Positions 1 through 20,000 are shown, numbered from the stretch's first letter. The stretch: 20,000 nucleotides of DNA from Euglena gracilis (GCA_039621445.1 CP154954.1:42206247-42226246); one strand, 5' to 3'. Made by a program: numbers and translations. The notes: a model not told the origin generated them from the letters alone.

Positions 1-822
1 GCCTGGGGCTTGGAAAATCAAAACAATTGGATTAAGGCGTCAGCCACTTGGTCTGTGGTGGCTTCGTGGGGGGGGACCCCCATTTACTCCAAAATTACCC
101 ACAGAAGCGTAAACACATTCTGGTAACGCTTCAAACTGGGGTTTCTTCCCAGGAAATCGTTAATGGTTTGAATCTGTGCTTGTTTCCCCTCCAAAATTTG
201 CCTGAGCAAATTTTCCTATAATCCTAAAATCCTTTGTCCAATACACCTTTCTCACCCTCGGGGTGAGCCACTCTCAAGGGGTAGTTGTTCCACACACAAA
301 AGACAGGCGATGGAATATGGTCATTTTTGGGTCTGTTTTGCAATGAAAGATCACAAAAAATGACTGCCAGAAGACCAAAAATATTGAGATTTACCATCAT
401 TTTCTTTGAGATGTTTGATTTCCCCATTCTTTTTTCAGAGAACCAAAATTTTTTGTTATTTGCTTTTTCTGTATTTCTTTCTGTATATTCCATTTGTCTC
501 CAAAGTTTTTTTGTCTTCTTGTGTTTTGAACGGGGATTAAATATTTTTTTCCCATCTGTGGTAGCAACTGCTTGCTCAAGGTGCTGAAAATTGAAGTCTT
601 TTCTGAAGAAAAATAAAATGCACAAGAGATAAAACGAAAAAATTGTAAAATAGTTGAATGATTGTCCCATTGAACTGCCCCAACTTCTGTCAGTTCCCTC
701 CAGCAATCTGGCAGGACCCTTGCCACCTGAATGGAAGTTGTTAGGGTCCCCACGTCGGCAGTCATGGCGTGGCTGGTCCACCTGCCACTTGGGTGCCCGT
801 CACACCCCCATTCCTCGGAGGC

Positions 823-930
823 AACGGCGTGCCGCGGATGGCGAAGGCCGTGGCGGGGGTGCGGCAGGCGGACATCGATGGGCCGGAGGACTTCCGGTAC
901 CTGACGAGCCTGCGGTTCTCCAGCCAGTGC
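823..930 (+). CDS. Cyclase gene exon A (NGVPRMAKAVAGVRQADIDGPEDFRYLTSLRFSSQ); both ends approximate
   Basis: GC3-rich island within ORF 769..990. It shares a frame with exon B, and CGCCCGC is repeated at both candidate junctions. Confidence 0.65.
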
Positions 931-3900
931 CGCCCGCCACCACTGCCCCCCCCCCCAAAGAAAGACAACCTAAAATTGTCGGAGTTCTGAAAGGGATTGG
1001 GGTTAGGGTTTGACGAATAGGATGAAATGGACCAGAATTCATGCCTAAAGTCGGACCACTGTTACACTTAACTGCCTAATTTGGCCTAAATCTTTTCCCT
1101 GATCCTTTTCCCAACGCCAACCATAACCCTGACCCTATCCCTGCGTGTTTGAAAAGTGGACCCCCATTTAATTTGAATCCCATCCATAAAAGGGGTTATT
1201 GTTATTTTTTATTTGTGCGTTTTATAATTTGGGAATTCATCCCCCGCCAGTCGGGCAGATGCTGATGAGAGAGAGATGCTCTTTCAGCTTGAAAGAGAGC
1301 ACATACCATACAGGTGTGGGTGTTTTTATTCCAAGAGGATTGTTTGGGTACAAACAACAGTTGTACCCACGACACCAGCAGAATATCACATGAGAAATGA
1401 ATCAACGGCCAACAAAAATAATTACATGCATATCATATGTGTAGATGGCAGCTCCCGCATATATATCTACATATAACATGCATAATCCTTTAATCCCATA
1501 ATCCATTAATCCATGCATGATCCGATAATCCTTTAATATATAACTGCACATATCCTTTATAAATGAATTCACCAATCGTTCGTTTTTTTTATGTATGTTT
1601 TTCCCCATATTTTTTCTTCCCATGATTTTTGCACCGACTGCAACAGCCCCATGCCCATTGTTGCTGTGCTGTGGCCCGGAGCACCCCCCCCCCCCCCCGA
1701 CCCCCACTGGGCAGGGCGGCGCCCGCAAAGTCTGCGGTGCGGGGAGGGGCTTGACGCCGCCGCCCCCATCCTCCGTGCCCTGCAGGGGGAGTCGGGCGTC
1801 ACGCTGGGCGACGACTACCGCCCCGTCCTGGTCATCTCGGCGTACACGTACCTCCCGGCCCTCCAGGCGGCGCTGGAGCTGAAGGTCGCCCACGGGGCTG
1901 CACGTTGGCTCTGCAACAGGTGGGAAGCACTCCCCAGCCTCCAGCACTGTGACAATGCACACTACACGAGGTCTAAAGCACACCCCCAGGGTTGACGTTT
2001 TCTTTAAAAAAAAACACAAAAAAACACGTTTTCTAAAATCAACTAAATTTTTCCCCTTTTTTTTAAAACTGCAAAATGCACATTTTTGGTTCAAAAACAC
2101 CTTAGGCGGTCGACTTCGCACTTAAGCTGTTCAGAAGTTCTTTGCGCAATCGCACCAGTTCAGAAAATAATTTTTGTGCTCCATCCTTCGCTAGCAAAAC
2201 GAGGTTCATCCCCTTTTTGTGCTTTCGACTGGGCTGACTCCGGCTGGTTTTTAAGTGGCCTCTGGGAGATGCCCAGCCCCAACCCCCCCCCCCTTCTTTG
2301 GCTAGTGGCACGTTTTTGGCGATCGACAGAGACGATGTCTAGCAACCTGAGAATGGGGGAAAACACACAAAAACACTTTTTCCCCTTGGTGCTGGCACAA
2401 AAGCCTTGTGGAAAAAAGGCCCCCTTTTCGTTTAAATCGGCGAAAACCCCGTGAAAGAGGTTTCTGAAAAGCTTCTTTCCCCCCATTTCCTCCCAATAGA
2501 AGAGCGGGGCCGCTGTAAGCGCAGGGTCCAAATAAGGCGCTCCCCCGCGACGGTCCGCTACAAGTCTCAAGTCCGCTACAAGCCCCCCATTTTGATGGAA
2601 TTTCTAAAGGAAATCAACAAAAATCACGCGGCTAGGGTCCAAATGAAAACGTAACCCCCCGCTGTAAGTGCGCCAGCGCTTGTGCTAGGGGGGGGGTCGA
2701 CTTTGGGATCAGGGGATGTGGACCAGTGAAGAAAAGCCACGGAGCACCAGTTTGGGAAGGTTGAGAGGTCTGGAATGTGGGGAGAGAGTTATTGATGTTT
2801 TCAGGGTGTCGGCAGGCGTGAGTGGTGAGGGCACCGGTTACAGCCCACAACCGGCCAACGGGGAAGGGCTCTGGGAGCCAGGGTTGGAAGATGTGCTAAA
2901 GGACGTTTTCCCTGGTTTTAGAGGATGGAAGTTGGCGCCGCGTCTTTATTGTGAAGTGGAAGGGGACATTGCCACTGAATGGGATGTTGAAACAATGGAA
3001 GCTCTTGCACAATGCGCAAAAGAGTTGGTGTGCCGAGTTGTTTGTTTCAAACTGAGTCATGCACCCCCTGATTTTCATGGGGAAATGAAGCTGCTCGGAA
3101 AGGCCGACAGGATCCACTGCTACAGATGCCTTGGGGACAGGCGTGGCAAAACACAGTAGGAGATAAATTCTGTCAATCTGTCAACAGTATCAGAAGCCCT
3201 TGTTTTCACCGATATGTAGAGTCCATAGAGTAAAGACTTTTTTTTTCAGCACCCCGTGGGAATGGGAAGTGAAGAATTGTATTTATTTTTGAAACTCAGT
3301 TGCGCAATTGCGCAAGTGTTTGAAATTTACACGCCTTTGCGCAATTACGCAAGCAGCTTTTTGGTTTTTGTTTGCGCGGTTGTGCAACGAAAGGGCGATA
3401 GGACTCTGGACATCCCGAACCCGTCATTTTTGTCCCAAACGGCAGCCATTCTGGCAGCAGTTGTTGCCAGGCAGATACTCTTCGGAGCTTGTGAACTTGT
3501 CGATCAGCTCCCAGGTTCTTATCTGTGAAATTTGACTGCGTCTGAATGCGGCTCTCCCAAAAGGGCGAAAGGGGGAAAAGATACGGAGGAAAAAATGATG
3601 GGAAAAAGAACGATGGGAATAATTGGGGCACCCAATCATTTATGTTTCCCATCATTTTGCCTGGACCGTAAAATTAGGATTTCCAACATCAGATTAGGAT
3701 TTTGGCTCCAAAAATTAGGAATATCTGGTGGTTTTCCAAAGAAACCTTTTAAGTCCACTTCACCCGAAATGGATTTGGCCAAGTCCACTTTACCCCAAAA
3801 TGGACTTGGCCAAGTCCACCTTACCCCAAATGGACTTGGCCAACTCCATTTTACCCCAAAAGGACATTGCCAAGTCCACTTTACCTCAAATGGACTTGGC

Positions 3901-4932
3901 CAAATCCACTTTACCGCAAATGGACTTGGCCAAGTCCACTTTTCCCCAAACGGACAAAATATTTTCTTAGAACCCTAGATGACAAATTAAAACAACAACA
4001 ACAATAGTTATTTTTTGAAAAATAACGTTTTTTTTAGTAAAAAAACTATCAACTTTGGCAAAAGGCCAAGCCATTTGCAAAAGAAATGCTGACAAACTGG
4101 ACCAGACAGATGGCTGATTGTTGGTCATCATTCTCAATTTTTTTTCAAGAAAATCGCCCAGTCAAATTGAAGGCACAGTGACCTTGCAAGAGGAAGCGAA
4201 GCACTGCTTGGTCACTTGGCGTGAGCGATCGCAAGCAACCCCTGTACTCGTGGTCACGCTGCCCAAAGAAATGCTCCAACAGGGTGCCTTTCTGTTTGCT
4301 CTCCAAACCAGGACGTCCTCGGCGATCCCCGCCGCCCTGTGTGGGGGATGCCTCCGAGGCCGAACAGCCCTCCATCACCGTGGCCAGCCGCCCAGGCTGG
4401 GGTGCCCCCCCAGTTGCACTGAGGCTTCTTGTCCGTTTATGACTTAACTTCGCTTCTGGCCCAGTTTGTGTGGTGTGTCTGGGGTGCCCCCCCCCCCTCC
4501 AGCAGGACGGCTGTGGTGGGTGGGGCGGGGGGGGGGCACCTCGTGAGACAGGGCTGGGCCGGGCCACCCCCCCCCGCCGCCCACCCCGGCGCTGCGGGCC
4601 GCCTGGCGCTGCTCTGTGTGGAGGCGGCGGCGTGCTGCCTGGTCGCCCTCGCCTTCATCATCAAGGCCATTGTGGCGTGGATCGAGAAGGTGTGGGCGGA
4701 GGGCCAGCGCACGGTGCGGGACCAGCGCCGAGGCCGGCCCCCGCTTTTTTTTTTTTTCTTTTTTTTTTTTATTTTTTTGTTTTTTTTTCCTTTTTTTTTT
4801 TGCCTTTTTTTTCTTGTTTATTTTTTTTGTTTAATTAGTTTTTTGGTTTTTTTTTTTCTTTTTTTTTTTTTTTTCTTTCTTTTTTTTTTTTTATTTTTCT
4901 TTTTTTTTTGTTTTCTTTTGTCTTTTTTTTTT

Positions 4933-4983
<51 letters not shown>

Positions 4984-5655
4984 TTTTTCTTTTTTTTTTT
5001 TTTTTTTGCCTTGCCCCTTGCCCTGGGCCCGTGGACACCGCCGGGTGGGGGACTGGGTGGGGGGAGGGCAGCCCCTGTCTCAGCATCATTTTCCCCTTTG
5101 GGGGGCGCTTTGGGGGGGCGTTGGGGCCGCTGTTTCCGCCGCCCGTGTCCCCCTGGGGGCGGCGGGGGCGTTGTGGGGGGCGGCCTCCCGCCGGCAGCAG
5201 CTGCTGACCTTCCTGGACCGGATGTACCCGGCGTCCGTTGGCCAGCCTGCCGGTCACAAGCCAGCCCTCCTCAGCCGCAAAATCCACCCCTACCCCTTTC
5301 CCCAGGCCAATGATCAAACCTGTGTTTGCAGGAAGAGGATGATCAACGGATGAAGTGTGCCAAAAATGTCCTACAGCAAACGGGCAGCACCGCACCGCAC
5401 AACAGCGTCGCCCACACTGCCCCCGTGACCGGCCGCCTGCCGTTGCCCGGGACCTCATCCTGACGCGGCCGCGGTGCGGTGGTATGATCAGCTTCATGGT
5501 GGCGGTGCCCCACGCCTCCGTCGTGTTCGCGGACATCCACGGCTTCACCAGCACCTGCCACCGCCTCACCGCGCAGCAGCTGATGGCCGGGGCTGCCCCA
5601 GTTCCAATGCGCTTTTCGTTCTCTGGCCTCCATCTGGCCCAAAGCCTTCCTGATG

Positions 5656-5721
<66 letters not shown>

Positions 5722-8013
5722 AAGAATGGTTCATGCGTGCGGGTGTGTGTGCACTTGTCCTTCATGTGCATGCAGGTTGACCAAAGATTCTCAAACAAAA
5801 TTTTTGGTAAGGACACAAATTTTGCTGCATTTTTTTTAACTGTAATTTCCAACCGGTTTCCCAACCAGGCGTCCGTTCAAGGGCTCCCAGCCAGCACCTG
5901 CCCGTGGGTTGGGCCAGATCCCGAGGCAGACCTTCCTCGGGTACACGTTCAGTGTGATGGACGTCGTGGCCAGCCGGGCCGGGATGTGCCGCGTGAAGCT
6001 GGTCGGGGACTGCTACATGGCGGTGGCTGGGCTGCCGGGCAGCGCTGACACGCCGTGCCGCAGCGCCGTCTTCTTCGCCACGTGGTGTGCCCAGGTCTTC
6101 AGCGACCGGCCTGCCCGCTGTGCATGAACCCGAGCTGAGTCGTGTGGGGAATCTCACTGTCTTGACGCCAAACCCCACTGGTGTTTGTTTTCACCTGGCC
6201 CCTCCCCATGCCTGACAGGAATGGTGGCATGGTTGGTGTGATTGATCCCCGGGCCACGCATAATCCCTCTTTGATTTGACAAATGGATGATTGGAAACGA
6301 AGGAGGGGTGCCCGCCTGGGCAGGCACTCCAAGGCACTCCTGATCCGACCTCCCCCCCGTGGGGGGTAGCGCACACGGCCAAAAGTGCCCTAGCACAGAC
6401 CCCAGCGCCGAAGGCGCAGGGGAGCCAAGAATGGCCTATTTTCAAAAGAATGTGCCTGGGCACATGCCGAAATCAGACCCCATTAGTTGCACTAAGGCTT
6501 CTTGTCTGTTTATGGCTGGCGCCAACTCCGCTTCTGGCCCAGTTTGCTGTGTAGTGGAGAAAGTTGTCAGACAGTCATGGTCCTCGCCGAAGTTTCCTGG
6601 GAGGGGCAAAGAAAGGGAACATGACAGCTTGACATCGACCACCCCAGCACACCTTTTTGCCAGGAAGAGGTTCAAAGTATCATGCAAGCGTCATTCTTCC
6701 TAGCACAGGTATTTGCTTTTTGTGGTGTGTTCATTTCATTTTTTTTTGGTCATCAGTTTAGCTGTCTCAAAGCGTGGTGAGGGGGGTCGTCAGAAGGCAA
6801 TGTGCAACAGCAGTCTTAGCGAGCCTTTTTGCTTTGTTCTGTCTCTTCCCTGTTTCGGGGGGGGGGGGTGGGCATGGAAGGCCATTGCGGCACAGGGGGG
6901 CAGCGGGCGCTACACCCACCCGCTGCAGAACCAGGCCACCATGGACGGATTGGCCGCCTTGGCTTGCAACAAGGGGCCCTGGCCGGACCCGTGGCGCACC
7001 GATTCCACCACCACCAGTGAGATCGGGGCCGGGCTCTATGGCTTCGCGTATGTGTGTACGTGCGTTCGTGCGTGTGTCCATTTGTGCATTTGTGCATTTG
7101 TGCATTTGTGCGGTGCGGTGCGTGTTTGCGTGTGTGTGTTTGCGTGTGTGTGCGTGTGCGCGCGCGCGTGTGTGTGTGTGTGTGTGTGCATGTGTGTTCC
7201 GTGTGTGCCCCAAGTGATCGGTGTGTTTGCCATTAAGAAAGGCTTGCGCCGCTGCCTTGATGCCTGCCTCCGCCCTCAGTGGCGCTGGGCGAAGTGAAGT
7301 GCCGTCCCTGGTGGAACCCGCAGGCCATGACGCTGGCCGGCCACGGCACGCCGTGCGTCCTGCGGTACGGCATCGCCACAGGCCGCGTCACGGCGGGCGT
7401 CCTCCCCGGCAACACCCCGCCCGCCCCGGCGCTGCTCCCCCCCCTACGACCCACCCCCCTGGTCGGAGGAGAGATTATCATTGGAGGGGACAGTCCTGTG
7501 TTTCTGCATTCTTGTGGACACTGCCGCTGCTGTTTTCGCCCCTGGGTGTTGCTAACCGTCAAAAGCCAAGAGCAGGCATCAACTCAAACCCGCCAATGCA
7601 GCCAAGTCTGCCCCGAAGATGTTCAGCGGGTAGTTTTGTTGCCCCAAAGTGGTTGACTTTTGCTTTCCACCGCGGCGCTGCTTTGCCGCTGTTGTGTGAT
7701 GCCGGGGGTTCCGCCTGCCTGGCCTCTTCCAACCCCCCCCCCCCCATGCCTCGTCCCTCCGGCCACGCGGGGGCCGCCGGGATCCTGGACGTGTGGGGCA
7801 AGGTGGTCACCTTCGCCAACCAGATGGAGCGCCTCAGCCAGCCGGGGCGGGTCCTCCTCTGCTCCCAGACGTACAAGTCTGTCACGCCCAGGGCGGCGGG
7901 CAGCCTGCCCGCCCGGCAATGACGTACTCCTTTAGGGGGCGGCGACCTCTGGAAGGGGGGACAGGTGTCCTTGCCACCAGGTAAAGGTCAGACAGGGAGA
8001 CAGACACATACAC

Positions 8014-8055
<42 letters not shown>

Positions 8056-11000
8056 GGACTTGCATGCATTGATGCATGCGTGCATATATGTATGTATGCA
8101 TGCATGATGCACACATCATTCATGCATACCAGGGCGTTGCTTACCTCCCCCCCCTTGTCCAACGACTGGCCTTGTCCCCCGGTCAGTAGCGATCTTTTTC
8201 CAGGTAATCTTTTTTTCAGACGTTCGCGTTCTTTTTCTTACAACTTTCATGGCAGATTTTGTACCGAGTTAGCCAGCACATACGGGAGCCTATGTGTTGG
8301 TGCCTTGTTGATTGCCGCACGTTTCTCCCTTTTTTTCATCATGAATCTGAGAGTTGTGGCCATGTCAGGCAAAGGAAACTTTTTTTCTTCACCTTGGGGC
8401 AAAGCAGGAGGAAAAAATTTTGACCCGGTCTTGTCTAACGGCCACCCCCCCGGTCAGTAGCGAAAATAGCGACCCCCCCCCCCCACGGTCAGTAGCCATG
8501 TTCAGCGGTCGTTGGACAAGGGGGGGGGGGGTAAGAAAAATTTGATCCCCCCAGGGGGGACCCTGCCAGCCAAGCCTTTTTCCAGCTGGCAGCCCTTTTC
8601 CAGCCCCGGACCCCCTCCCCCCATCAACGAGATTGATTTATTTCCGGCCGCCCGAAGGGTGGCTAGACGGCAACAGATTTTTCACTTCCAGGAGGTACAG
8701 AAATGGGCCAAAAATGGGCCAAAAATGGCTTAGAAAAGGGTTGGCAAGGGCAAGGAAATCGTTGTTTTTTTTTAATTGGCAGTTTTTTGGACATTTTTGT
8801 GACTTCATTTTTTTGAACCCGGTTCGACCCCAAGTCGGGCCCAGCTCCAGCCTGGGACACCTATGGGGCGGGGAGGGAGGGGGTCAGCCAGCAGCCTTTT
8901 TCCAGCCAGCTCACGTTTTCCAGCCCCTGAGCTGGACCCCCCGGGAGTCCTAAGCAACTCCCTGATGCATACATACAGACATGCATTCATACATACAGAA
9001 AGAGAAATGGACAGACAGACAGACGGACGGACGGACGGACAGATGGACATACACAGGGATAAAAGTGAATTTATTCACCTTATCTATTCTCCTCTGAGTT
9101 GCATGTCAAACAAAACAAACACATGAAAGCTTTGCTTTTGCAGTTTGATTTTTTTCTTCTGCTTTTTTAAAAAAGGAGGAACCAATTGTTGTTTTTTTTG
9201 CCCCGGTTTGGCCCTGCGGGGTCCTGGAACGGCGCCGGATCTGGGCAAACTCGGTCGACTGGGGGAGATTCGGCACTTAATTAGAAGGATAGGGCTAGGG
9301 TTGGGATTGGCGCGCCGAAAATTGGCACTTTTGAGGGACCCAGTTGGGCCGGACAGTGGGTTCCGTTTTGGGAAGATCCTGAATCGCCCGTTTTTCCCAA
9401 AAATGCCCGAATTCGACCCAAATTCCCCCAAAATTCGCCCGCTGTGCAGCCGAACTCCTCCCTGAATTCCGAAACGAGGGGGCCTCCGGGAATCCGGCCG
9501 CGACCCTAACCCCATCCCTAAAAATAGCCCGACTTTCGCCTGAGGGTCGGACGGGGGGATGCTACATGGACCACTCCCCTGGAGCTACTATTTGGCCCGC
9601 GGGCCAAGTTGTAGCTTGCTGCGATTTCTTCCATCAACTTTTTGCAGCTGTCTTCATTTTTGGCTGCCGAGAGCTTTCGCCCCTCCTCGTCCCCATGGGG
9701 GTGGGGACCCGCTCTCGGCTTCCAAAAAGTCTATGCGGCCGAGCGAGAGGCCCCGGTGCCCGGCCTCCCCGAAGCCCGGACCACATCCTGGGCCGCAACC
9801 TTGATGCCTCCCGGGGACCCCCTCCCCCCGGCCCTCCCCGGGGTGGGGCCCTCCGCCCTGGCCCCGGCGGACGACGTCGCCAGCCACGCCTTCACGTTCG
9901 AGGACGGCCCGCCGCTGCCAGCCCGCCCCTCGCCCAGCGCCGCCGCCACCAGCCACTTCGTCCGCTCCGCCCGCGGCCTCCCGCCCTGCCTCGTGCCTGG
10001 GGGGGCCCCGGCCGACGTCCCCGACACGGGGGGGGGGGCGGGGGGAGGGGGCAGCTGTTGATTGCAAAGGCAGTGGTGGAGCGCAGAGCTTGCGTTGCAT
10101 GTCTGCCTGAACACTCACCTGCACCACAGGCACAGTTTTCTTTCCGAGCTCTATAGCCCTGATGTTGTTGCCAGAAACGCGAGATAAAAATTCAAACTCA
10201 ACCATCCAAAAGGAGAGGTCAAATCCTTTTCTGGAGTGCAAGGGAACTCACTGTGCCAGCAACACTGTTAGAGTGAAAATCAGATCATTTATTTCAAATC
10301 AGATCTAAAATCAGATCCAGAAATGAAAAATTCCTGGAATTATTATGAATTTTACCCGGTGATTATGGTTTTTACCTGGTGAGACTTATTTGAGCCGAGA
10401 ATCTATGGATTTCGCATGACCTATTTGTTTTTGGGGGCTCATGCCAGCTTCCATCTCTTATTGGCCACACTAATCACGAACTGTACAGAGAGTTAATTTC
10501 ATTCTTTGTATCAAGCAATTTCACTGAAATCAAACACCCGTGGATGGGTCGCGGTCGGGCTGTACAGGATTCCCCGAAACCCAATGGGTGGTCGGTGGAG
10601 GGGGTCCAACCCCCCCCCCACCCCTTCCGTATTTCTGGTGGGATTATTCGGCCAAAGTTTTCTTTACGCGACTGCCATGGTGGGTGGGGGTCGACCCCTC
10701 CCTGGGTGGGGTGCCAACCCCCCCACCAGGCCTTCCCGTACAGCCCTGGGGTGGATGGATATGAAAATAATGTGTGTGTGTGTGTATGCGTGTGTGTGCA
10801 CATGCGTGCGTGCGTGCATGTGTGGGTGGGTGGGTGGATGTGTAGGAGGGTGGGTGGGTTGGTGTTGAGATGTGGGGGTGTTGGCAGGATGGCAGTGATC
10901 TTTGCCCCCCCATGCCGCGTCGCCGGGCGCCTCGCCGGTGGAAGCGGATCGTTGGTTTGGCTGTCGGACGAACCCCGGTTGGCCACTCCCCCCCCCCCGC

Positions 11001-11758
11001 TTCTGTGAGGGCCGCCCCACCGACGGCGGAGCTGGGGCTCTCCCCCGTCGCATACGACGCTGCCGGTCCTCCGCCCCCGGACCCCACAACCTCTGCAGAC
11101 CCCAGCTCCCCAGCCAGGCAGGGACTGCTGTGCGGGCTGCCCCCCTCCCATGGAGCGCACTGCTGCGCGCTGTTTAGGCCAGAGTTCCGAGGTTCAGGGG
11201 CACAGGGCAAGAACCAGGGAGGCCCAGGAATGTGTCGAACGGGGGCCTTTTTTTGCATCAATTCCCAACTGCTCAACCTTTCATTGCGTTTTCGACAACG
11301 TTCAAATGGATATTTTCCCTCTGCATTGCATGGGTCAAAGCTGCTGATGAAGGATCCTTTGACGCTTTTCGGCAGGGGTCTCGCAGGGCAGGGTCGAAAT
11401 AATTTGGGATTTGCTCAAAATGAGGACATTGCACACTCGGGGCGATTATGAGGCAGTTACACCATCGGCAGTGATACAGTGAGGCAGTTCTTGCGCAGGA
11501 GAGTGCGTGGCCGTTCCCATCAGCTGAAAGGTATTTTGGAATCCATGATTCTGGAGGGGGCACAGCAGTACTTCCTGCCTTGTCTGCCCGTGCTTGTTTT
11601 GCTTGCGTGCACAGTTCAGTGCACACACATAACGTTCGGTGTGTTTTCTTTGTTTTTTTTTTTGGTTTTCCATCCACTGCAGGCAGGGACCCCCACAGGT
11701 CCCTGACGCCGACGACGCACCGTTGGTCCTCCTCACGGAGGCTTCCTCTGGTACTTGA
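823..11758 (+). CDS. 5'-partial multi-exon gene: receptor-type class III adenylyl/guanylyl cyclase-like protein (Cache-like domain, TM helix, cyclase domain)
   Basis: Predicted exons ~823-~930, ~1721-1887, 4347-4389, 4601-4726, 5193-5239, 5445-5584, 5929-6107, 6909-7016, 7280-7418, 7781-7885, 9866-9994, 11025-11115, 11711-11758 join into one stop-free frame. Motifs occur in the expected order: GDDYRPVLVISAY..LKV/DASEAEQP, a hydrophobic helix, FLDRMYPASVA, VVFADIHGFT, VKLVGDCYMAVAG, LRYGIATG, LDVWG..ME, PGRVLLC. Confidence 0.88.
927..1724 (+). other. Nonconventional intron 1 (exact ends ambiguous: 927-1724, 929-1720 or 932-1720 all keep frame)
   Basis: CCGCCC (930-935) pairs with GGGCGG (1714-1719). 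No AG at any of these candidate 3' ends. Confidence 0.6.
1721..1887 (+). CDS. Exon B, Cache-like segment (..AAAPILRALQGESGVTLGDDYRPVLVISAYTYLPALQAALELKV); start within 1721-1725
   Basis: RAL.G.SG....DYR...VI.AY........L.LKV resembles the C-terminal half of dCache-type domains (recognised by eye). High GC3. Confidence 0.8.
2896..3225 (-). pseudogene. Possible decayed non-LTR retrotransposon AP-endonuclease fragment
   Basis: Minus strand reads WTLHIGENKGF*YC*QIDRIYLL..VGLSEQLHFP, resembling the (W)T..RIDRI..SDHxP C-terminal motifs. Recognised by eye only. Confidence 0.3.
3751..3955. repeat. 30-bp minisatellite, about 7 units, palindromic
   Basis: Unit AAGTCCACTTTACCCCAAATGGACTTGGCC starting at 3751, 3781, 3812, 3842, 3872, 3902 and 3932. 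Confidence 0.95.
4347..4389 (+). CDS. Exon C, 43 nt (DASEAEQPSITVAS)
   Basis: Joining to exon B gives LKVDASEAEQP, matching the KxDxxExxxP end of Cache domains. The preceding intron's ends pair. Confidence 0.75.
4390..4600 (+). other. Nonconventional intron 3 (211 nt)
   Basis: C|G..C|G junctions. CAG-GCTGGGGTG pairs with CACCCCGGC-g-CTG, with the register shifted by one (+4/-7). Confidence 0.7.
4412..4478. repeat. Short dispersed repeat, copy 1, flanked by a 15-bp direct repeat
   Basis: AGTTGCACT.AGGCTTCTTGTC.GTTTATG..CGCTTCTGGCCCAGTTTG recurs at 6485-6546. CTGGGGTGCCCCCCC occurs at 4397-4411 and 4479-4493. Confidence 0.8.
4601..4726 (+). CDS. Exon D, transmembrane helix plus linker (RLALLCVEAAACCLVALAFIIKAIVAWIEKVWAEGQRTVRDQ)
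   Basis: Hydrophobic stretch of ~20 aa followed by a charged helix, within ORF 4429..5313. Confidence 0.8.
4727..5192 (+). other. Nonconventional intron 4 (466 nt)
   Basis: gcc-GAGGCCG pairs with CGGCCTC-ccgcc; C|G..C|G junctions; +4/-6 register. Confidence 0.75.
4745..5007. repeat. ~260-nt interrupted poly(T) tract in intron 4
   Basis: Directly visible. Confidence 0.95.
5193..5239 (+). CDS. Exon E (RQQLLTFLDRMYPASV)
   Basis: Resembles the LL..MLP..VA segment that precedes class III cyclase domains. Both flanking introns show +4/-6 pairing. Confidence 0.82.
5240..5444 (+). other. Nonconventional intron 5 (205 nt), textbook CAG/CTG type
   Basis: T|ggcCAG..CTGccgtt|G, plus a perfect 9-bp pair GCCGGTCAC/GTGACCGGC. 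Confidence 0.88.
5445..5584 (+). CDS. Exon F, start of cyclase domain (ARDLIL..ASVVFADIHGFTSTCHRLTAQQL)
   Basis: FADIxGFT motif with the first metal-binding Asp at codon 5532. Confidence 0.92.
5585..5928 (+). other. Nonconventional intron 6 (344 nt); sliding 1 nt gives GC..AG ends
   Basis: ggc-CGGGG pairs with TCCCG-aggca (+4/-6). The join gives QQLMTFLG. Confidence 0.78.
5658..5720. repeat. (TG)n microsatellite
   Basis: Directly visible. Degenerate TG tracts also occur at ~7050-7207 and ~10771-10825. Confidence 0.97.
5929..6107 (+). CDS. Exon G (TFLGYTFSVMDVVA..RVKLVGDCYMAVAGLP..CAQVFSD)
   Basis: KxxGDCYM motif: Lys codon 5996, second metal-binding Asp codon 6008. Confidence 0.92.
6108..6908 (+). 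other. Nonconventional intron 7 (801 nt), reversed CTG/CAG stem
   Basis: C|ggcCTGCCCgCTGTGC pairs with GCACAG..GGGCAGcgggc|G. Confidence 0.78.
6485..6546. repeat. Short dispersed repeat, copy 2
   Basis: Closely similar to 4412-4468 apart from a short central indel; same left boundary. Confidence 0.8.
6909..7016 (+). CDS. Exon H, insertion within the cyclase domain (RYTHPLQNQATMDGLAALACNKGPWPDPWRTDSTTT)
   Basis: Upstream intron ends pair in the +4/-6 register. Downstream GTGAGA donor is phase-compatible with the CAG acceptor ending at 7279. Confidence 0.72.
7017..7279 (+). other. Conventional GT-AG intron 8 (263 nt)
   Basis: GTGAGA donor, pyrimidine-rich CAG acceptor, phase 1 on both sides. 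Confidence 0.75.
7280..7418 (+). CDS. Exon I (MALGEVK..PCVLRYGIATGRVTAGVLPGNT)
   Basis: RxGIxTGxVxAGV cyclase motif. Confidence 0.9.
7419..7780 (+). other. Nonconventional intron 9 (362 nt)
   Basis: GCCCCgGCG (7423-7431) pairs with CGCgGGGGC (7766-7774), i.e. +5/-7 on the same register. It restores motif spacing. Confidence 0.78.
7781..7885 (+). CDS. Exon J (PILDVWGKVVTFANQMERLSQPGRVLLCSQTYKSV)
   Basis: DVWG..V..A..ME....PGRV motif. The join gives GVLPGNTPILDVWG, the same spacing as canonical GVIGxxKPxYDIWG. Confidence 0.92.
8015..8055. repeat. (GACA)n microsatellite; related GACA/GACG run at ~9010-9045
   Basis: Directly visible on both sides of the 8130-8964 insertion. Confidence 0.93.
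8130..8964. mobile_element. Non-autonomous hAT-like TIR element (MITE), 835 bp, inside intron 10
   Basis: TIRs CAGGGCGTTGCTTA / TAAGCAACTCCCTG (13 of 14 match). Perfect 8-bp TSD ATGCATAC at 8122-8129 and 8965-8972. No transposase ORF. Confidence 0.88.
9866..9994 (+). CDS. Exon K (ADDVASHAFTFEDGPPLPARPSPSAAATSHFVRSARGLPPCL)
   Basis: FxFE..TxxFV-like end of the cyclase domain. Both flanking introns pair in the +4/-6 register and keep the frame. Confidence 0.78.
9995..11024 (+). other. Nonconventional intron 11 (1030 nt)
   Basis: T|gccTGGGGGGGCCC pairs with GGGCCGCCCCAccgac|G (10 of 11 positions). Confidence 0.7.
10555..10748. mobile_element. Possible degenerate MITE in intron 11
   Basis: GGGCTGTACAGGA at the left is nearly complementary to TCCCGTACAGCCCTG at the right. 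No TSD found. Confidence 0.4.
11025..11115 (+). CDS. Exon L (AELGLSPVAYDAAGPPPPDPTTSADPSSPA)
   Basis: Defined by stems of both flanking introns and by frame continuity; no protein motif. Confidence 0.62.
11116..11710 (+). other. Nonconventional intron 12 (595 nt)
   Basis: C|aggCAGGGACtgCTGTG pairs with CACAG-GTCCCTGacgcc|G. Confidence 0.62.
11711..11758 (+). CDS. Probable last exon M (DDAPLVLLTEASSGT*)
   Basis: Follows a GTCCCTG-acgcc intron end complementary to CAGGGAC at 11119. Phase 0, ending at TGA 11756-11758. Confidence 0.55.
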   Translation, partial: DDAPLVLLTEASSGT

Positions 11759-14700
11759 CCAGCGTGTCAAATAGCCACCCACCAGTCGGCCGGGCGTGTT
11801 TTCTGACACAGGTGAGAGAGTCAGGGTGGAGAGCCTGGCCTTTCCCCTCAGGCCACAGTGTCTCTCAGGCTTGCTCACCCAGGAGCCCCAACCCACCATC
11901 ATTTCCGGGCTGTGGCGTCCCTCAGAGAGCGCCCGGAGCCCACCCTTCCCTCCTCCCCACGTTTCCACCGCCTGATCCCTTTCCTCCTCTGGGTCTGGAT
12001 GGGCCGAGGGAAGCCCCCTTTGCCTCGCAACGCATCCTGCATGACGTAGCACCTTCGAACCAGGTCTTCCCCACCTGCCAGCTTTTTGTTATTCCGGCGG
12101 GGTGTTTCCTGGCTTTCCATGTCTGGCTGATGGAGGGTGCTTGAAGACACGTTATCGGAGGTGACATTTCCTTTGAAGGCAGCAGCCCATATGCCAGTGT
12201 GCTGTGGTATTTTGAAGGCTCCAGCTCGCTCCAGGGAAACACCTTAATTGGTTCAGCTTGACAGTTTATTTGGGAAAATTGAAACGCAGCTTTTTTAAAA
12301 AAAAAAAAAGTGTTTAAGGGGTCAGGTGTTGGTTTTCACGTGATGGTGCGGCGTTGCTGGAGCGGGCAAATGCAGAGTGATGGAATGCGTCCTGGGGGGG
12401 GGGGGGGCGCAGCGCTCCTCCCGGCGCTCCTCCTGGAGCGGGGGGACAGATGGAGGCGGCGGGGGCAGCCCTGGGTGTCGGGGCCGCGGCCACTTTGTTT
12501 GCATCGCATGCAAACCCCCGCCACTGCCGGGCCCCTCGCCCCTTTCCCCTCCGTTAACCTTGGCCCGGCCCCCGTCCCGGCCTACCCCCCCCCCCCCCCC
12601 CCCCCTAAACCCCAAATATAAATCCCAAATTTGGATCCCAAACTAAGATAAATAAGAATAAAAGGCAACATACAAACCTCCCTGATTTGGCGACCAAAAA
12701 TAATCCCCTCTTGGAAGCGCCGATAGCTGGATCGCGAACGTTGAGGGGTGGGATGTCACGGGAGGTTGGTCTGTGGGAGGTGGGTGCCGCGGCCGGCCGT
12801 GGCCCAACCACGGCGAATTTTGGCTTTCAAAATTTTCTTTTGGTTAGGCCAAAAGAAAAGAGGAAACCCAACGTCGAGAGACAGCAAAATTCCTGAAAAT
12901 GTATGATTTTGTTACAGTTTTTAGCAATTCATTGGACTTTACATTTTTTGCTCCAAAAATGGTGACCAACTAGAATTTTGCTTGAAAAAATGGTGAATTT
13001 GGGCGAGATGAGGGCAAATTTGGAAACATCATGCTTTCAGCCACAGAGAACTCCTGGGGGGTTTCGGTGCCAAGCGCCGGAAAACTTTTTTTTGGAATTG
13101 CCTTGGAATTCCGATTCGGGAAATCCCCGGGGGGGGACTGAGCCCGCGAAGCCCGTCACGCAGTCAAACGCTCTGCTCCCCCGAGGATGCGGCCTGCCCC
13201 CGGCACTGCCTCCCCCGCATCGCCCTCTGTAGAGTACGCACAGAGCGCCCGACCACTTGTCACGCGCTCCAACACTTTGCCTTCTCACTGGTGTTTTTTT
13301 GGCCCCACCTGCCGCCGCCGCGCGATGGCATCCGGCCGGGAGCCAGGCCTGTGGCGGGACGACACTGTGGATGTGCAATTTTCCCGGATTGTGTTGCACA
13401 GCAGGGGTTGGTTTGAAGCCAGAGGGAACCCTACCCACCAGGGGGTCCAGCCATCCAGCACTTTTTCCCCGGCCCGCACCTCCCAGATGGGCTGCGGAGG
13501 TGAAAAATGCCCAAAATAGGGCATTTTTTGGGTGGTTTTTGGTTTTTCACCTCTAAATTTGGTTGAAAAAACGGCAACTCAGTTGGATTTGGTCTTTTCC
13601 TTTTTTTTTGTACCTGCCGAGTCCAGCTCCTAGCCCGGTCCCCCCCGAACCCCCACCCCTTTGGGGGGGGGGGGGCAGCAAGCACCTTTTTTTCCAGCCA
13701 GCACCTCTTTCCAGCTGTCCCGCAGGACCCTGGAACGTCAGTAACTGGAGGGGCTGATGTGGTTTGACACACACAAATGCGGAAATCCTTTCCTCCATTT
13801 GTTCCCGCCCTAATCACTTTCTCTGGCAAAATGAAAATGCCTTCAAGGCCGGGCTGAACAGCTGGCTGTGCTGGCAGGTGAGTGAATCCATAGAAACAGT
13901 CCAATTGCTCCCTGAAAGGAGTGCCCCGAGGAAGTGGAATGGCTTGCATCATACTGGTGGGTGTCGGGATAATCTGTGGGTTTGCTGGTGCCGGGAACGA
14001 TAGTTTCCAGGGCAGGACCCTGACAGGCTTTTGGAAACGACAAGCCAAGCCAAGGCCAAGGCCAGCCAAGGCCACCGCCATACTCCCCCCCCCCTGGTCC
14101 CCGTCCTGCTTACATGCAAACTTGGCCCCCCTGAAGCTGGCCTTTGGCCTTCTGCATATGGCGACCAAAATTTTTAACGTGCAAATTTAGCCCCCAAAGA
14201 TTGGCCCCCAAGCATCCCGGGGGGGGGGGGAGGGTGCCAAAGGCACTCTCGTTTCCCGGAATGGAAACGGCGTGATCCCGTCTTTTCCCGACCTGCCGAC
14301 GATGAAGTGGACCTGCCCTCGTCACCCACGCTCGCTGTGATGGGGGACGCTGACCCCCTGTTGTGTCGATTCAGGTCACCCCGTCCCCCGGCCCCCGCAG
14401 ACGGCTTTCTTCCCTTCCCTTCCCCCCTCTCCCTCCGCCCAGCACCGATGCTTTTCCCATATACCAGCCTGGCTCCCTACCCAGGCTGCGCCAACCCCCC
14501 CTCCCTCCCCTCCCTCCTCCCCCAGGGAATTTGTTTCACTGGAGATCACAGGCAGCATTTTCTTGTTTCCCCAGCCAGCTGCTCTCGCTGGGCTGCAACC
14601 CCCCAGGTCAACAGAAATAATGTTGCCCCCTTCGCTTGATGGAAGTACAGGTGCGCTTATAGCGGACCACGGCCTCCGGCGGCAGGGGGGGGCATTTCTA

Positions 14701-15004
14701 TTTGGGCCCCACCTGCGTGATTTTTGTTGATTTTCTTTGGAAACCCCAGCAAAATGAGGTTGCACTTGTGGTGGCCTGCCACCTTCGGTGGCGGGGGTCC
14801 GCTTTTGTTTGGACCATGGCGGACCTGTGCTTCTATTAGGGGGTATTAGGGGGGTATGGGCACGAGACACCAGGAAAATAAACAAAAGAATGGCTGTTTC
14901 TCGTAATCTTGGCTGAAAAGTCCTTACCCAGCTTTGATTTGGGCTTTTTTACCAGTCGTCGGGTTGCCAGTTTTCAGGAACCAGCTGGGTTCAGCATACA
15001 ATCA

Positions 15005-15290
15005 CCAGTCACTGTCCCCCCCCCCCCGGATGGGTGATTGGTTTTTTTTTCAGAGTGACTGGCTGAGGGACAGGCATGGACCCTGCTTCCCGGGGGGGGG
15101 GGGGGGGTTAAAAAATGCCTCAAGTGACCCGGCGCCGAAGGCTCTGGAAATCCTTTCGCCTTTTTCATGTTTGTGGTCAAATTTCCTTTGGATTACGGAG
15201 TGGCTGCCCCCCTCCCCCAGGGGGGGAGTGACTGACTGGTTTTCTGGAAAACAGTGACTGACTGGTTTTTGAAAGAGTGGGAGTGACTCC
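15005..15290. repeat. Cluster of GTGACTG(ACT)GG motifs in both orientations, probably a TIR-element remnant
   Basis: CCAGTCAC at 15005; GTGACTGG or GTGACTGACTGG at ~15055, 15228 and 15254, between C and G runs. Termini not resolved. Confidence 0.45.
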
Positions 15291-17639: not shown

Positions 17640-17675
17640 CTTCCTCCTCCCACCGCCTCCTGTCACTCCCCACAG
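17640..17675 (+). promoter_or_regulatory. Putative spliced-leader trans-splice (or cis) acceptor
   Basis: Pyrimidine-rich run ending in CCCCACAG, 37 nt before the ATG. SL trans-splicing is established in Euglenozoa. Confidence 0.45.
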
Positions 17676-17712
17676 ACCCGGCCCGCCCCCCCCACCCGAA
17701 GCCACCCACACC

Positions 17713-17840
17713 ATGTACGGCTCTGTGCCCGCGGACCAGGTGGCGCCGGACCCCCGGCCGAGGGACGGCGCCGAGGGGCAGGGGCTGCTGCGCGGCCAGC
17801 CCCAGCCCCGGCCCACGGCCCCAGTGGTCCTGTTCTGCGC
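17713..17840 (+). CDS. Probable first coding exon of a second gene (MYGSVPADQVAPDPRPRDGAEGQGLLRGQPQPRPTAPVVLFC..); 3' end approximate
   Basis: ACC-ATG context, high GC3, and an upstream pyrimidine tract ending in CAG. Confidence 0.55.
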
Positions 17841-19350: not shown

Positions 19351-19816
19351 CAGGGGGGGGGGGAAATGCAACTTGCATAATTTGCATTTTTTTGCATAAT
19401 CGGCTTTTCCCGAAATTTGCATTTTTTTGCATTTTTTTGCATTTTTTTGCATAAAATATTTTCCCTGTAAATTTTTTTTTAAATTTGGGTTTTGTTAGTT
19501 TTTTTGGAATTTTTTTGCATATTTTTGCATTTTCTACATAAAATATTTTGCCCTGGAAAGAAATTTTGTTGTTGGTTGCCATATTTATGGATTTTTTTTG
19601 CATTTCTTTGCATTTTTTTTGCATAAAATATTTTGCCCTGGAAATTTTTTTTGATCTTAGGCAGCAAAGCTCGGTTATCCCTTCCGACCCAGCTTTTTCT
19701 CATGTTTTTCATGCAAGTTGCATTTTTTTGCATTTTTTTTGCATTTTTTTGCATTTTTTTGCATTTTTTTGACTTGCATAATTTGAAGGGCCCAGTTGCA
19801 TTTTTTCCCCCCCCTG
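19351..19816. mobile_element. MITE with CAGGG termini and internal T(n)GCA arrays
   Basis: CAG(G)nAAATGCAACT / AGTTGCA(T)n(C)nTG inverted ends. CAGGGAG directly repeated at 19344-19350 and 19817-19823 (7 bp). Three internal copies of CATAAAATATTTT(G/C)CCCTG. Confidence 0.8.
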
Positions 19817-20000
19817 CAGGGAGGCAGTGTGCACAACAGACCCAACGAGTCCGCTCGGCCAAAGAATTATTTCTTCGGTTTGTTTTCTCTTCTATGGCTG
19901 CATTGTCGTTGTTTTGCTGCTACCTTGGCCCCTAATGCGACGACCCCCCATTTAACGACAGCACCAGACGAGGGCAACGCAGGAATCAGGCTGGTGCGTT

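Follow-up and report, generated by a model that had tools for sequence, protein, structure and literature searches.

Spacer geometry of nonconventional introns in a Euglena gracilis cyclase-like gene and its possible relation to transposon target duplications

In a class III cyclase-like gene of Euglena gracilis, the introns that could be placed fit cuts 3 nt before and 5 nt after a terminal stem, and the 20,000-nt window analysed here (GCA_039621445.1 CP154954.1:42206247-42226246, the whole stretch to which all coordinates refer) weakly supports a link between these 3+5=8 spacers and transposons. We infer that the spacer sum of 8 is no accident and that it matches the 8-bp target duplication of CAG..CTG-ended transposons. 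The causal claim, namely that such introns began as transposon insertions, which would account for the junction repeats and for the spacers, stands in our judgement at even chances. The introns here are ordinary euglenid nonconventional introns of the cyclase gene, accompanied by a transposon with inverted repeats, non-autonomous and lying inside intron 10.

The gene lies on the + strand, is of the euglenid type and has 12 introns, six of which (4, 5, 6, 7, 10 and 12) were placed to the base; introns 1, 2, 3, 8, 9 and 11 were not placeable to the base. The relevant features are as follows:

4727..5192, + strand: nonconventional intron 4 of 466 nt with ends GC..CC; the highest scorer among frame-compatible candidates having 3+5 spacers; stem GAGGCCGGCCCCCGC / GTGGGGGGCGGCCTC
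5235..5242, + strand: 8 nt on the left of the intron 5 stem, CCGTTGGC (5 exon and 3 intron bases)
5240..5444, + strand: intron 5, nonconventional, 205 nt; stem arms 5243-5257 / 5425-5439, CAG..CTG, 13 of 15 Watson-Crick pairs
5440..5447, + strand: 8 nt on the right of the intron 5 stem, CCGTTGCC (5 intron and 3 exon bases); 7/8 against the left flank
5586..5926, + strand: intron 6, 341 nt; stem GGGGCTGCCCCAGTTC / GGGTTGGGCCAGATCC with 4 G-U pairs, not CAG..CTG; acceptor exon begins with C
5927..6107, + strand: exon 7, class III cyclase domain core (VKLVGDCYMAVAGLPG); PF00211 at 25.4 bits against a cut-off of 21.9
6108..6908, + strand: intron 7, 801 nt; stem CTGCCC / GGGCAG (CTG..CAG, not CAG..CTG); pieces of RNA-type run X15 end near 6107 and 6907
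7886..9865, + strand: intron 10, 1980 nt; stem CAGGGCGGCGGGC / GCCCTCCGCCCTG (12/13), CAGGG..CCCTG; holds the transposon
11116..11710, + strand: intron 12, 595 nt; stem CAGGGAC / GTCCCTG; equivalent to 11113-11707 by a 3-nt slide

As the sequence-only reading had claimed, the terminal stem begins 3 nt inside the 5' cut and ends 5 nt inside the 3' cut in all six introns, as far as they can be placed. This geometry is frame-compatible in 6/6 cases (frames alone also permit sums of 5 or 11), and the spacer total remains 8 however the introns slide; sliding by at least 1 nt is possible in every one of them, with a long repeat in one alone. Intron 12 is supported by a junction in an RNA-type contig (11112|11708): the contig aligns from 11708 onwards and carries, just before that, the 12 letters of 11101-11112. 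Its spacer sum of 8 follows from this junction. After its removal the reading frame continues to a TGA at 11756-11758. Removal from mRNA is seen for intron 12 through one contig junction and is suggested for introns 6 and 7 by the ends of contig pieces, among them an X15 piece covering exon 7 at about 5928-6107 (worked out from contig end values); the matches listed for the raw RNA run, 15 of 322, include no splice joint. Removal of intron 10 joins ..SQTYKSVT to ADDVASHAFTFEDG.. in frame. For intron 6, the spacing of the Pfam cyclase profile across exons 6-7 favours 5586-5926 over a GT-AG alternative (5601-5929).

None of the six introns has GT/GC..AG ends (intron 4, GC..CC; 5, GG..TT; 6, GC..GG; 7, GG..GC; 10, GC..CC; 12, AG..CC). 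CAG at +4..+6 with CTG at -8..-6 occurs in three of them (5, 10 and 12), the stems of introns 10 and 12 reading CAGGG..CCCTG as reported earlier, and the stem end triplets of introns 4, 6 and 7 are GAG/CTC, GGG/TCC and CTG/CAG. The acceptor exon starts with a purine in five cases, the exception being intron 6 (C). Within intron 4 lies a tract rich in T (4741-5007, 87% T).

Experiments have already established the 3+5 geometry as a splicing code (PNAS 2025). The rule comprises a spacer of 3 nt ahead of CAG, one of 5 nt (5-6) following CTG and a purine as the acceptor exon's first base, and it was proven with knock-in mutants and with fully synthetic 50-bp introns that follow it and are spliced (PMC12501133). 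The arithmetic of the sequence-only reading is correct and builds on this rule, from which it follows that a CAG..CTG element with an 8-bp duplication would be cut from RNA together with exactly one duplicate. The 5-6 nt tolerance of the 3' spacer counts against a transposon origin; the proven rule, the RNA-confirmed geometry of intron 12 and the fit of all six introns count for it. The introns here are like other euglenid nonconventional introns in their non-GT-AG ends, terminal stem (with CAG/CTG in three of the six), 3/5-nt spacers, acceptor purine and sliding junctions (PMC12501133; PMC3935182; PMC4770533; PMC11170887). No essential difference from the accounts in these sources was found; the other three have different end triplets, of which only GAG/CTC resembles the published derivative motifs of CAG/CTG (C-D-G / C-H-G).

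The case for junction duplications comes mainly from intron 5, the sole intron of the window that looks like an element inserted with its target site duplication. Its flanks agree at 7 of 8 positions (CCGTTGGC/CCGTTGCC), which reproduces the earlier observation; the intron slides 5 nt back and 1 nt forward, the repeat being bounded exactly at -5, and its terminal stem also occurs within the minimum-energy fold. A 13/15 stem with a 7/8 repeat exactly in the predicted register is counted in favour of a transposon origin. The values given before for the remaining introns held at 5/8 for introns 4 (CCAGC|GCC / CCGCC|GGC) and 10, and at 3, 4 and 3 of 8 for introns 6, 7 and 12, which is no better than cross-paired flanks. 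The 6/8 given for intron 3 did not hold up: it is reached only in a G-run register (GGCTGGGG/GGGGGGGG, donor 4400, acceptor 4532), and the stem candidates that score best in the three frames, one per frame, have flanks matching at 1 to 4 of 8. The flanks of the top-scoring candidates for the unplaced introns (1, 2, 3, 8, 9 and 11) likewise agree at 1 to 4 of 8, which speaks against a transposon origin.

Flank identity was compared with two controls. Against 22,623 CAG..CTG pairs with poor stems in the window (mean 2.06/8), the six introns show an excess with P about 2e-5. The second control cross-pairs flanks between introns and so allows for GC bias and for the Y|R consensus at the cut sites; here, own flanks average 4.5/8 vs 3.33/8, and 15 of 720 permutations reach the observed sum, or 79 of 720 when the two cut-site positions are dropped. 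The excess is mostly due to intron 5, without which the mean of own flanks is 4.0. Two further results count for a transposon origin: the in-register flank sum of 27 is the largest among 17 registers tried, and of the 19 CAG..CTG pairs in which 13 or more bases pair, 3 show flank matches of 6/8 or better (expected about 0.16). The proposed identity beyond Y|R and GC bias is present as an excess over cross-paired flanks, and this excess is weak.

The transposon in intron 10 and a second element with the same ends are described by the following features:

8122..8129, no strand assigned: left 8-bp flanking repeat of the element, ATGCATAC
8130..8964, no strand assigned: terminal-inverted-repeat (TIR) element (MITE), 835 bp, non-coding; TIRs 8130-8143 / 8951-8964, 13/14
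8965..8972, no strand assigned: right 8-bp flanking repeat, ATGCATAC; 8/8 against the left copy
19351..19816, no strand assigned: second TIR element with CAGGG..CCCTG ends, TIR 20/23

The first of these, with its CAGGG..CCCTG ends and 8-bp duplication, was found as the sequence-only reading had described it, the duplication being read from one copy in a low-complexity context. Its ends are CAGGGCGTTGCTTA / TAAGCAACTCCCTG (13/14 inverted match), and a long inner inverted repeat lies at 8144-8166 / 8508-8530. The 8-mer ATGCATAC occurs in the window at 8122 and 8965 and nowhere else. It sits amid ATRCATRC-like low complexity, with one-mismatch relatives in the flanks (3 upstream, 4 downstream), so that an 8/8 repeat is less surprising than the raw odds suggest. 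The element is small, non-coding and multi-copy: none of 7 ORF translations has a Pfam match, contig depth in DNA run X8 is 7,800-19,100 over 7888-9321 and exceeds the roughly 26-67 of single-copy bins by a factor of hundreds (contig depth is not an exact copy number), and internal-deletion variants are present in the DNA runs. Among the matches listed for these runs, no empty-site joint for the element was seen. Were the element placed in an exon, its 3' cut would be followed by T and not by the preferred purine, a point against a transposon origin of the introns. The second element is flanked by a 7-nt repeat (CAGGGAG at 19344-19350 / 19817-19823; 4/8 in the 8-nt register), which also counts against it, whereas the presence in the window of two elements with intron-like 5-nt ends counts for it.

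Elements of the hAT superfamily have 8-bp target duplications, ends that usually start C/T-A-purine-N-G, and targets fitting nTnnnnAn. The element at 8130-8964 resembles hAT MITEs in its 8-bp flanking repeat, CAGGG-start ends, lack of coding capacity and many copies, and ATGCATAC fits this target pattern; it differs in that no transposase or autonomous partner was seen, two metagenome scans included, that one clean copy was examined, and that the second element has a 7-nt repeat. It thus looks hAT-like by its ends and duplication length, the superfamily being a provisional assignment, and the earlier "hAT-type" label draws on these two features; that no transposase was seen counts against a transposon origin of the introns. 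No report of a hAT element from Euglena was found in the literature searched. According to PMC8101967, Merlin is the only DNA transposon with 8-bp duplications documented in E. gracilis; its ends start with GG, and in the aligned E. gracilis copies inspected the sequence they share ends ..CAAGTAC, not ..CCCTG as here, which is counted against a transposon origin.

The sequence-only reading had also suggested looking for multi-copy intron families matching MITEs and for presence/absence polymorphism. Neither was found: bins with introns 5, 6, 8 and 9 have depths of 26-67 in X8 and stand at single-copy level in both DNA runs (the search works at 95% likeness in 478-nt bins and would miss old families), self-comparison of the window gave no match between an intron and a MITE, and no intron was seen to differ in presence across the two DNA runs. 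Intron 5 occurs in both (contigs X2 5114-5563 and X8 5117-5563), which, like the single-copy depth, counts against a transposon origin. Inverted ends plus a duplication around an intron are clear in one of six cases (intron 5, 7/8).

Coincidence is a possible, if somewhat doubtful, explanation of these observations. The 3/5 offsets would then be the shape of the cutting enzyme, the junction repeats would stem from a weak shared cut-site preference (pyrimidine|purine, C-rich) and GC-rich coding sequence, and the intron 10 transposon would be an unrelated passenger sharing common CAGG..CCTG ends. A 2-nt stagger across the helix is common among double-strand RNA nucleases. Cross-paired flanks at 3.33/8 against a background of 2.06/8 indicate that a shared consensus explains most of the excess, and the 79 of 720 permutations without the cut-site positions point the same way, as does the failure to see a multi-copy intron at the depth of the DNA runs. 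The stems of introns 4, 6 and 7, which are not CAG..CTG and use G-U pairs (intron 6 leaning on them), suggest selection on RNA and not DNA inverted repeats, and synthetic introns with arbitrary spacers splice (PMC12501133). However, coincidence leaves unexplained the 7/8 repeat of intron 5, bounded at -5, the eight-nucleotide repeats of one recently gained intron (PMC4770533), and the C that published data show conserved as third base in the downstream coding exon, which mirrors the C at intron +3 (PMC11170887 for the latter). That the spacers should add up to the very duplication length of same-ended elements would moreover be a roughly 1-in-10 accident by our own estimate.

The intron with eight-nucleotide direct junction repeats is gapC intron 4 of E. 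agilis ACOI 323, the one strain-specific new nonconventional intron in print; it is counted for a transposon origin here, and its authors read the repeats as double-strand-break repair by analogy with Daphnia (PMC4770533). Repair of staggered breaks with filler DNA, giving variable-length repeats, with stems and CAG/CTG selected on RNA and no transposase involved, appears improbable to us. Besides being the reading of those authors, it gains from the fact that all six placeable introns slide, only one with a long repeat, and that the same is possible for 84.4% of E. agilis introns, a figure that covers conventional ones too; yet it does not predict that introns are born with inverted ends or that repeat length is fixed at the spacer sum, and TIR elements sharing these ends, with 8-bp flanking repeat, do exist in the same gene. 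Very improbable is the reverse direction, in which the dispersed CAGGG..CCCTG repeats would descend from excised, circularising introns copied back to DNA. Full-length circles of excised nonconventional introns are known (review PMC11282704), and elements and introns share end motifs, but reinsertion of an RNA copy predicts no fixed 8-bp duplication abutting inverted ends, the internal-deletion variants of the 835-bp element are typical of DNA-transposon families, and the ORF translations of 8130-8964 showed no reverse-transcriptase trace in Pfam comparisons.

A transposon origin of such introns had been proposed by others, as the sequence-only reading noted: a MITE origin was published in 2014 and "TSD-like" junction repeats in 2024. 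Neither the 3+5=8 arithmetic nor a hAT link for these introns was found in print. Precedents exist for elements removed as introns. Huff et al. (2016) are said to have described introners as spliceosomal introns that derive from transposons and make use of the target duplication in their splice sites, and Giroux et al. (1994) reportedly found that the hAT element Ds of maize is removed from transcripts by splicing, as a de novo intron. In Ds, a hAT-type element in an exon is likewise removed at the RNA level, but its removal is spliceosomal and imprecise, whereas here it would be precise by geometry. Introners share with the proposed introns the inverted ends, the flanking duplications and the removal of the element plus one duplicate, seamless at birth (PMC11282704; Gozashti et al.). 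They differ in that the spliceosome cuts them, at GT..AG sites to which the element contributes in part, whereas the introns here have their cut measured from an RNA stem and would have the duplicate split 5|3, and in being recognised as multi-copy intron families, none of which was seen in this window.

For the transposon origin, intron 5 fits, as do, independently, the published repeats and the mirrored junction logos, neither of which the sequence-only reading cited, and the weak excess and the lack of multi-copy or polymorphic introns in our data do not. Under this origin, a CAG..CTG-ended element would insert in an exon and duplicate 8 bp of target, and its inverted ends would pair in the RNA. 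The machinery that removes introns from pre-mRNA would recognise the CAG/CTG-closed terminal stem and cut 3 nt upstream and 5 nt downstream of it, both of which others have shown for these introns, and the cuts would take out the element together with 3 nt from the end of the left duplicate and 5 nt from the beginning of the right one. As the element plus exactly one duplicate is removed, the original mRNA would be restored. A duplicated 8-mer also predicts mirrored junction rules at the two cuts, and in print both obey like rules, with a pyrimidine before, a purine after and logos that mirror each other. Intron 5 would be a fairly young insertion of a CAG..CTG-ended element, and older introns would have lost the intron-side half of their duplicates, keeping only the parts needed by RNA structure and cut sites.

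The plus strand of the window carries a 13-exon class III cyclase-like gene (~745-11758). PF00211, the adenylate/guanylate cyclase catalytic domain, matches exon 7 with 25.4 bits and exon 10 with 24.2 bits (Pfam cut-off 21.9), and exon 6 with a score under the cut-off. Alignments of exons 9 and 10 to bacterial adenylate cyclases of solved structure are weak (E 0.27 to 1.3), the two exons covering successive stretches. Searches for a spliced protein with exon 7 as query returned either nothing or only an unspliced genomic ORF (P0001). To place the introns, all frame-compatible donor/acceptor pairs in each gap between coding segments were collected and scored by the stem that leaves 3 nt outside it at the 5' end and 5 nt at the 3' end, a score that is blind to the identity of the flanks. 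Six introns could be placed in this way.

Placeable introns of the cyclase-like gene, each with a stem 3 nt inside the 5' cut and 5 nt inside the 3' cut
4727-5192, + strand, intron 4
5240-5444, + strand, intron 5
5586-5926, + strand, intron 6
6108-6908, + strand, intron 7
7886-9865, + strand, intron 10
11116-11710, + strand, intron 12

All placeable introns of this gene follow the rule of 3 nt and 5 nt, and none of the six has GT..AG ends. CAG..CTG stands at +4..+6 and -8..-6 in introns 5, 10 and 12, and the stems of introns 10 and 12 indeed read CAGGG..CCCTG, as had been noticed from the sequence alone; the end triplets of the other three (introns 4, 6 and 7) are GAG/CTC, GGG/TCC and CTG/CAG. 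To our knowledge, such a nonconventional architecture is known only from euglenids and diplonemids, so that the window is probably nuclear DNA of a euglenid.

Read evidence came from two RNA-type and two DNA runs over 5020-19350, introns 1-4 being without it. Since the read joints (15 of 322 rows listed) were mostly repeat-driven, support for the introns consists of the ends of contig pieces and one loose end. For intron 12, the alignment of a contig from the RNA-type run X15 starts at 11708, and the 12 letters in front of it are unique to 11101-11112; a 3-nt slide makes this junction coincide with 11116-11710. Given a stem at 11119/11705, the spacers add up to 8 under any sliding. Pieces of X15 contigs also end near 5928, 6107 and 6907, which supports introns 6 and 7, and for intron 6 the spacing of the Pfam profile favours the nonconventional over the GT..AG reading.

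Introns 1, 2, 3, 8, 9 and 11 were not placed to the base. Introns 3 and 11 close with stems of a G run and a C run, whose register is not fixed. For intron 9, whose expected length is 362 nt from the spacing in solved cyclases, a check by hand rather than by script found no stem of more than 4 pairs with the 3+5 geometry at that length. A conventional GT..AG reading is possible for intron 2 (1920-4311), where GT stands at 1920 and AG at 4310-4311, with a C/T-rich tract between them. Its nonconventional alternative (1914-4303) has flanks that agree at 7/8 (CTCTGCAA/CTCTCCAA), but its stem combines 6 Watson-Crick pairs with 5 of the G-U type, and the two readings give different frames for exon 3.

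Several introns contain repeats of other kinds. Intron 2 holds seven tandem copies of a partly palindromic 30-nt unit (AAATGGACTTGGCCAAGTCCAC.., 3737-3986), and intron 4 a 267-nt tract (4741-5007) that is 87% T. Introns 3 and 7 share a repeat of ~67 nt (4412-4480 and 6485-6551, copies 84% alike), and the intron 3 copy has the 13-nt direct repeat GGGGTGCCCCCCC on both sides (4399-4411 and 4482-4494). In the DNA run X8, contig depth over 5976-6931 is ~88,000-90,000, compared to ~26-48 in the adjacent bins, which would place the ~67-nt repeat among the commonest of the genome. This repeat has no Rfam match, and no Rfam family was detected anywhere in the window.

Intron 10 encloses the 835-bp element 8130-8964, which the sequence-only reading had taken for a CAG..CTG-ended MITE with an 8-bp target duplication. 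Its inverted ends CAGGGCGTTGCTTA and TAAGCAACTCCCTG agree at 13/14, and ATGCATAC, an 8-mer absent from the rest of the window, stands on each side; this 8/8 identity is less improbable than in random sequence, since the flanks are ATRCATRC-like and of low complexity, and contain variants of the 8-mer with one mismatch (3 upstream and 4 downstream). None of seven ORF translations of the element has a Pfam match. Contig depth over 7888-9321, which is not an exact copy number, is 7,800-19,100 in X8 versus ~26-67 for single-copy sequence, and 36,700-48,000 in the DNA run X2 versus ~120-440. Internally deleted copies elsewhere are seen from the DNA-run joints among those listed. The element nested in intron 10 is a non-autonomous TIR element present in multiple copies. 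Its end motif does not recur above chance (3 matches versus 2.06 expected, two of the three being its own ends), and one metagenome scan each for Euglena DNA, with the MITE end and with a high-copy repeat, found nothing. The MITE also interrupts a symmetric microsatellite block (7990-8129 and 8965-9045): on the left, (GACA)n comes first and ATGC/ATAC-type repeats after it, and on the right this order is mirrored, an arrangement that fits insertion into a pre-existing simple-repeat block.

A scan for inverted repeats with exact outward extension lost true elements at the first mismatch and was dropped, and a loose scan that allowed G-U pairs gave 899 pairs, mainly noise.

Further TIR-like pairs in the window
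19351-19816, second element, CAGGG..CCCTG ends agreeing at 20/23, flanking repeat of 7 nt
14523-15370, third pair, perfect 11-nt inverted ends CAGGGAATTTG / CAAATTCCCTG 848 nt apart, flanks 5/8

The pair at 14523-15370 may belong to a further element or to an intron of a transcript downstream. Mismatch positions in the X15 contig depth class 61.4 imply pieces that end near 13333 and span ~14401-14502 (limits derived from from_end values), a pattern suggestive of a transcript that is spliced and lies downstream of the cyclase gene. Besides, a CAG..CTG inverted pair at 15729-17868 (13/16, 2.1 kb apart) has flanks CTTCCTGG and CTTCCTCC that agree at 6/8. It may be due to chance, as ~0.6 such cases are expected at ≥6/8 among the 71 pairs listed at the background rate of poor-stem pairs. 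Long runs of G and of C (10028-10055, 12584-12606 and 15089-15107) collect RNA reads by the hundreds, whose homopolymer ends are loose, and give rise to an 'opposite strands' joint at 10051/12605; both look like mapping artefacts rather than biology.

For the flanks of the introns, we compared the 8 nt before each stem with the 8 nt after it, the true register running from exon -5 to intron +3. In intron 5, whose stem has 13/15 pairs, the flanks CCGTTGGC and CCGTTGCC agree at 7/8, in exactly the register that had been predicted. The intron can be slid exactly 5 nt back and 1 nt forward, so that the repeat ends where the predicted 8-mer does. Identity is 5/8 in introns 4 and 10 and 3, 4 and 3 of 8 in introns 6, 7 and 12, again as first read from the sequence. 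The 6/8 assigned to intron 3 fared worse: only a G-run register (GGCTGGGG/GGGGGGGG) yields it, and the top stem candidates of the three reading frames give 1-4 of 8. The whole of intron 5 folds no better than its shuffles (z 0.69), the notable part being the terminal stem only. Two variants fall in this stem: A5428G, seen in X8 only, turns a U-A into a U-G pair and keeps the RNA structure, and T5248C, seen in X8 and X2, changes a position that is already unpaired.

Among 22,623 poor-stem CAG..CTG pairs in the window, mean identity is 2.06/8, with P(≥5) 0.040, P(≥6) 0.0083, P(≥7) 0.00115 and 8/8 in none. The 19 CAG..CTG pairs in which ≥13 bases are paired include 3 at ≥6/8 versus ~0.16 expected, and their mean is 3.05/8 versus 2.1-2.7 in shifted control registers. 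For the six placeable introns the flank sum is 27 (P ~2e-5, or 1.6e-3 without intron 5, against the poor-stem background, which disregards the junction consensus). Both junctions resemble C-S-N-N-C|G-S-C, and flanks cross-paired between introns already reach 3.33/8 (30 pairs). With this cross-pair control, 27 is reached in 15/720 permutations and in 0/265 derangements, and it is the largest of the 17 registers tried, the next being 22. With the two cut-site positions dropped, the observed 17/36 is reached in 79/720 permutations. The sequence-only reading had named a lack of excess over Y|R and GC bias as its refutation; with n=6, this refutation neither applies nor clearly fails. The excess of own-pair identity is real but small, and comes mainly from intron 5.

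In the accessible parts of the published accounts, the geometry itself is well described. CAG at +4..+6 was reported in 2014-2016 together with CTG at -8..-6 (PMC3935182, PMC4770533), and the E. gracilis consensus has CCAGG at +3..+7, with CCTG at -9..-6 (PMC11170887). Knock-ins in E. gracilis in 2025 showed a strict donor spacer of 3 nt, an acceptor spacer of 5 (5-6) nt and a preference for a purine as the first base of the acceptor exon; 50-bp introns that are fully synthetic and follow the code are spliced, and the machinery measures 3 nt and 5 nt from the CAG/CTG-closed stem (PMC12501133). An origin of nonconventional introns from MITEs was proposed in 2014 and restated in 2018 and 2025, and a 2024 review describes the stems as TIRs and the junction repeats as TSD-like (PMC11282704). 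The 3/5 geometry is not new, and the features themselves are of known kinds. In the openly accessible literature that was searched, we found no published statement that 3+5 equals the duplication length, nor of a link to hAT. This link, which makes an old hypothesis of origin sharply testable, is apparently unpublished.

An element with CAG..CTG ends that inserted into an exon would be an intron of this class at birth, and would later retain RNA-level signals only. The spacer sum would equal the target duplication because only then could an exon insertion be removed without a scar. That the introns of this class began as such insertions seems to us an evenly balanced proposition. The duplicated 8-mer would be split 5|3 by both cuts, which predicts mirrored junction rules, and published junctions, as far as accessible, do follow the same rules at both cuts: a purine starts the intron as well as the exon downstream, and C as the third base of that exon is paralleled by C at intron +3 (the latter in PMC11170887). 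A shared preference of the enzyme could also produce the Y|R part of this mirroring. Together with the 3.33/8 of cross-paired flanks, this would fit a coincidence of geometry and cut-site consensus, an explanation that we find rather doubtful but take seriously. The label hAT, given to the element tentatively, comes from a comparison of its duplication length and CAGGG ends with hAT patterns. Merlin, in the accessible sources the only transposon with an 8-bp duplication documented in E. gracilis, was set aside as the source because its ends differ from those of the element.

The only strain-specific, and hence recent, nonconventional intron described in the accessible literature is gapC intron 4 of E. 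agilis ACOI 323. Fitting the transposon origin, it has eight-nucleotide direct repeats at its junctions, the longest in that study; its authors read them as a trace of double-strand-break repair (PMC4770533). As the origin of these introns, such repair appears improbable to us, and a derivation of the elements from introns, in the reverse direction, very improbable. Regarding the transposon origin, a multi-copy intron family, which the sequence-only reading had proposed to look for, did not emerge: the bins of introns 5, 6, 8 and 9 have single-copy depth, and no similarity between introns and the MITE was seen. Neither did a presence/absence difference, intron 5 being present in both DNA runs.

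The question of how euglenid nonconventional introns, which make up ~70% of Euglena introns, arise and are removed has stood since the 1990s. The 3+5 sum joins three separate facts, namely the 3/5-nt code, the TIR-like ends and the 'TSD-like' repeats (including one 8-nt case, read as break repair). In its broadest form, which we advance only tentatively, the transposon origin would make the 3+5 rule the footprint of one transposon superfamily: the excision machinery would have evolved or been recruited to undo 8-bp-duplicating CAG..CTG insertions, so that every exon insertion is born as a seamless intron, and the nonconventional introns would mostly be fossil hAT-like MITEs with the duplicate split 5|3. 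If the transposon origin is true, 8-nt identity in register should fade with intron age, CAG..CTG families with 8-bp duplications should have members in exons as introns, and such an element should be spliced seamlessly in the EgGSL2 knock-in assay. Non-spliceosomal excision would then let a DNA transposon colonise Euglena coding sequence at no cost, which would explain the huge intron load, and the introner idea would reach beyond the spliceosome.
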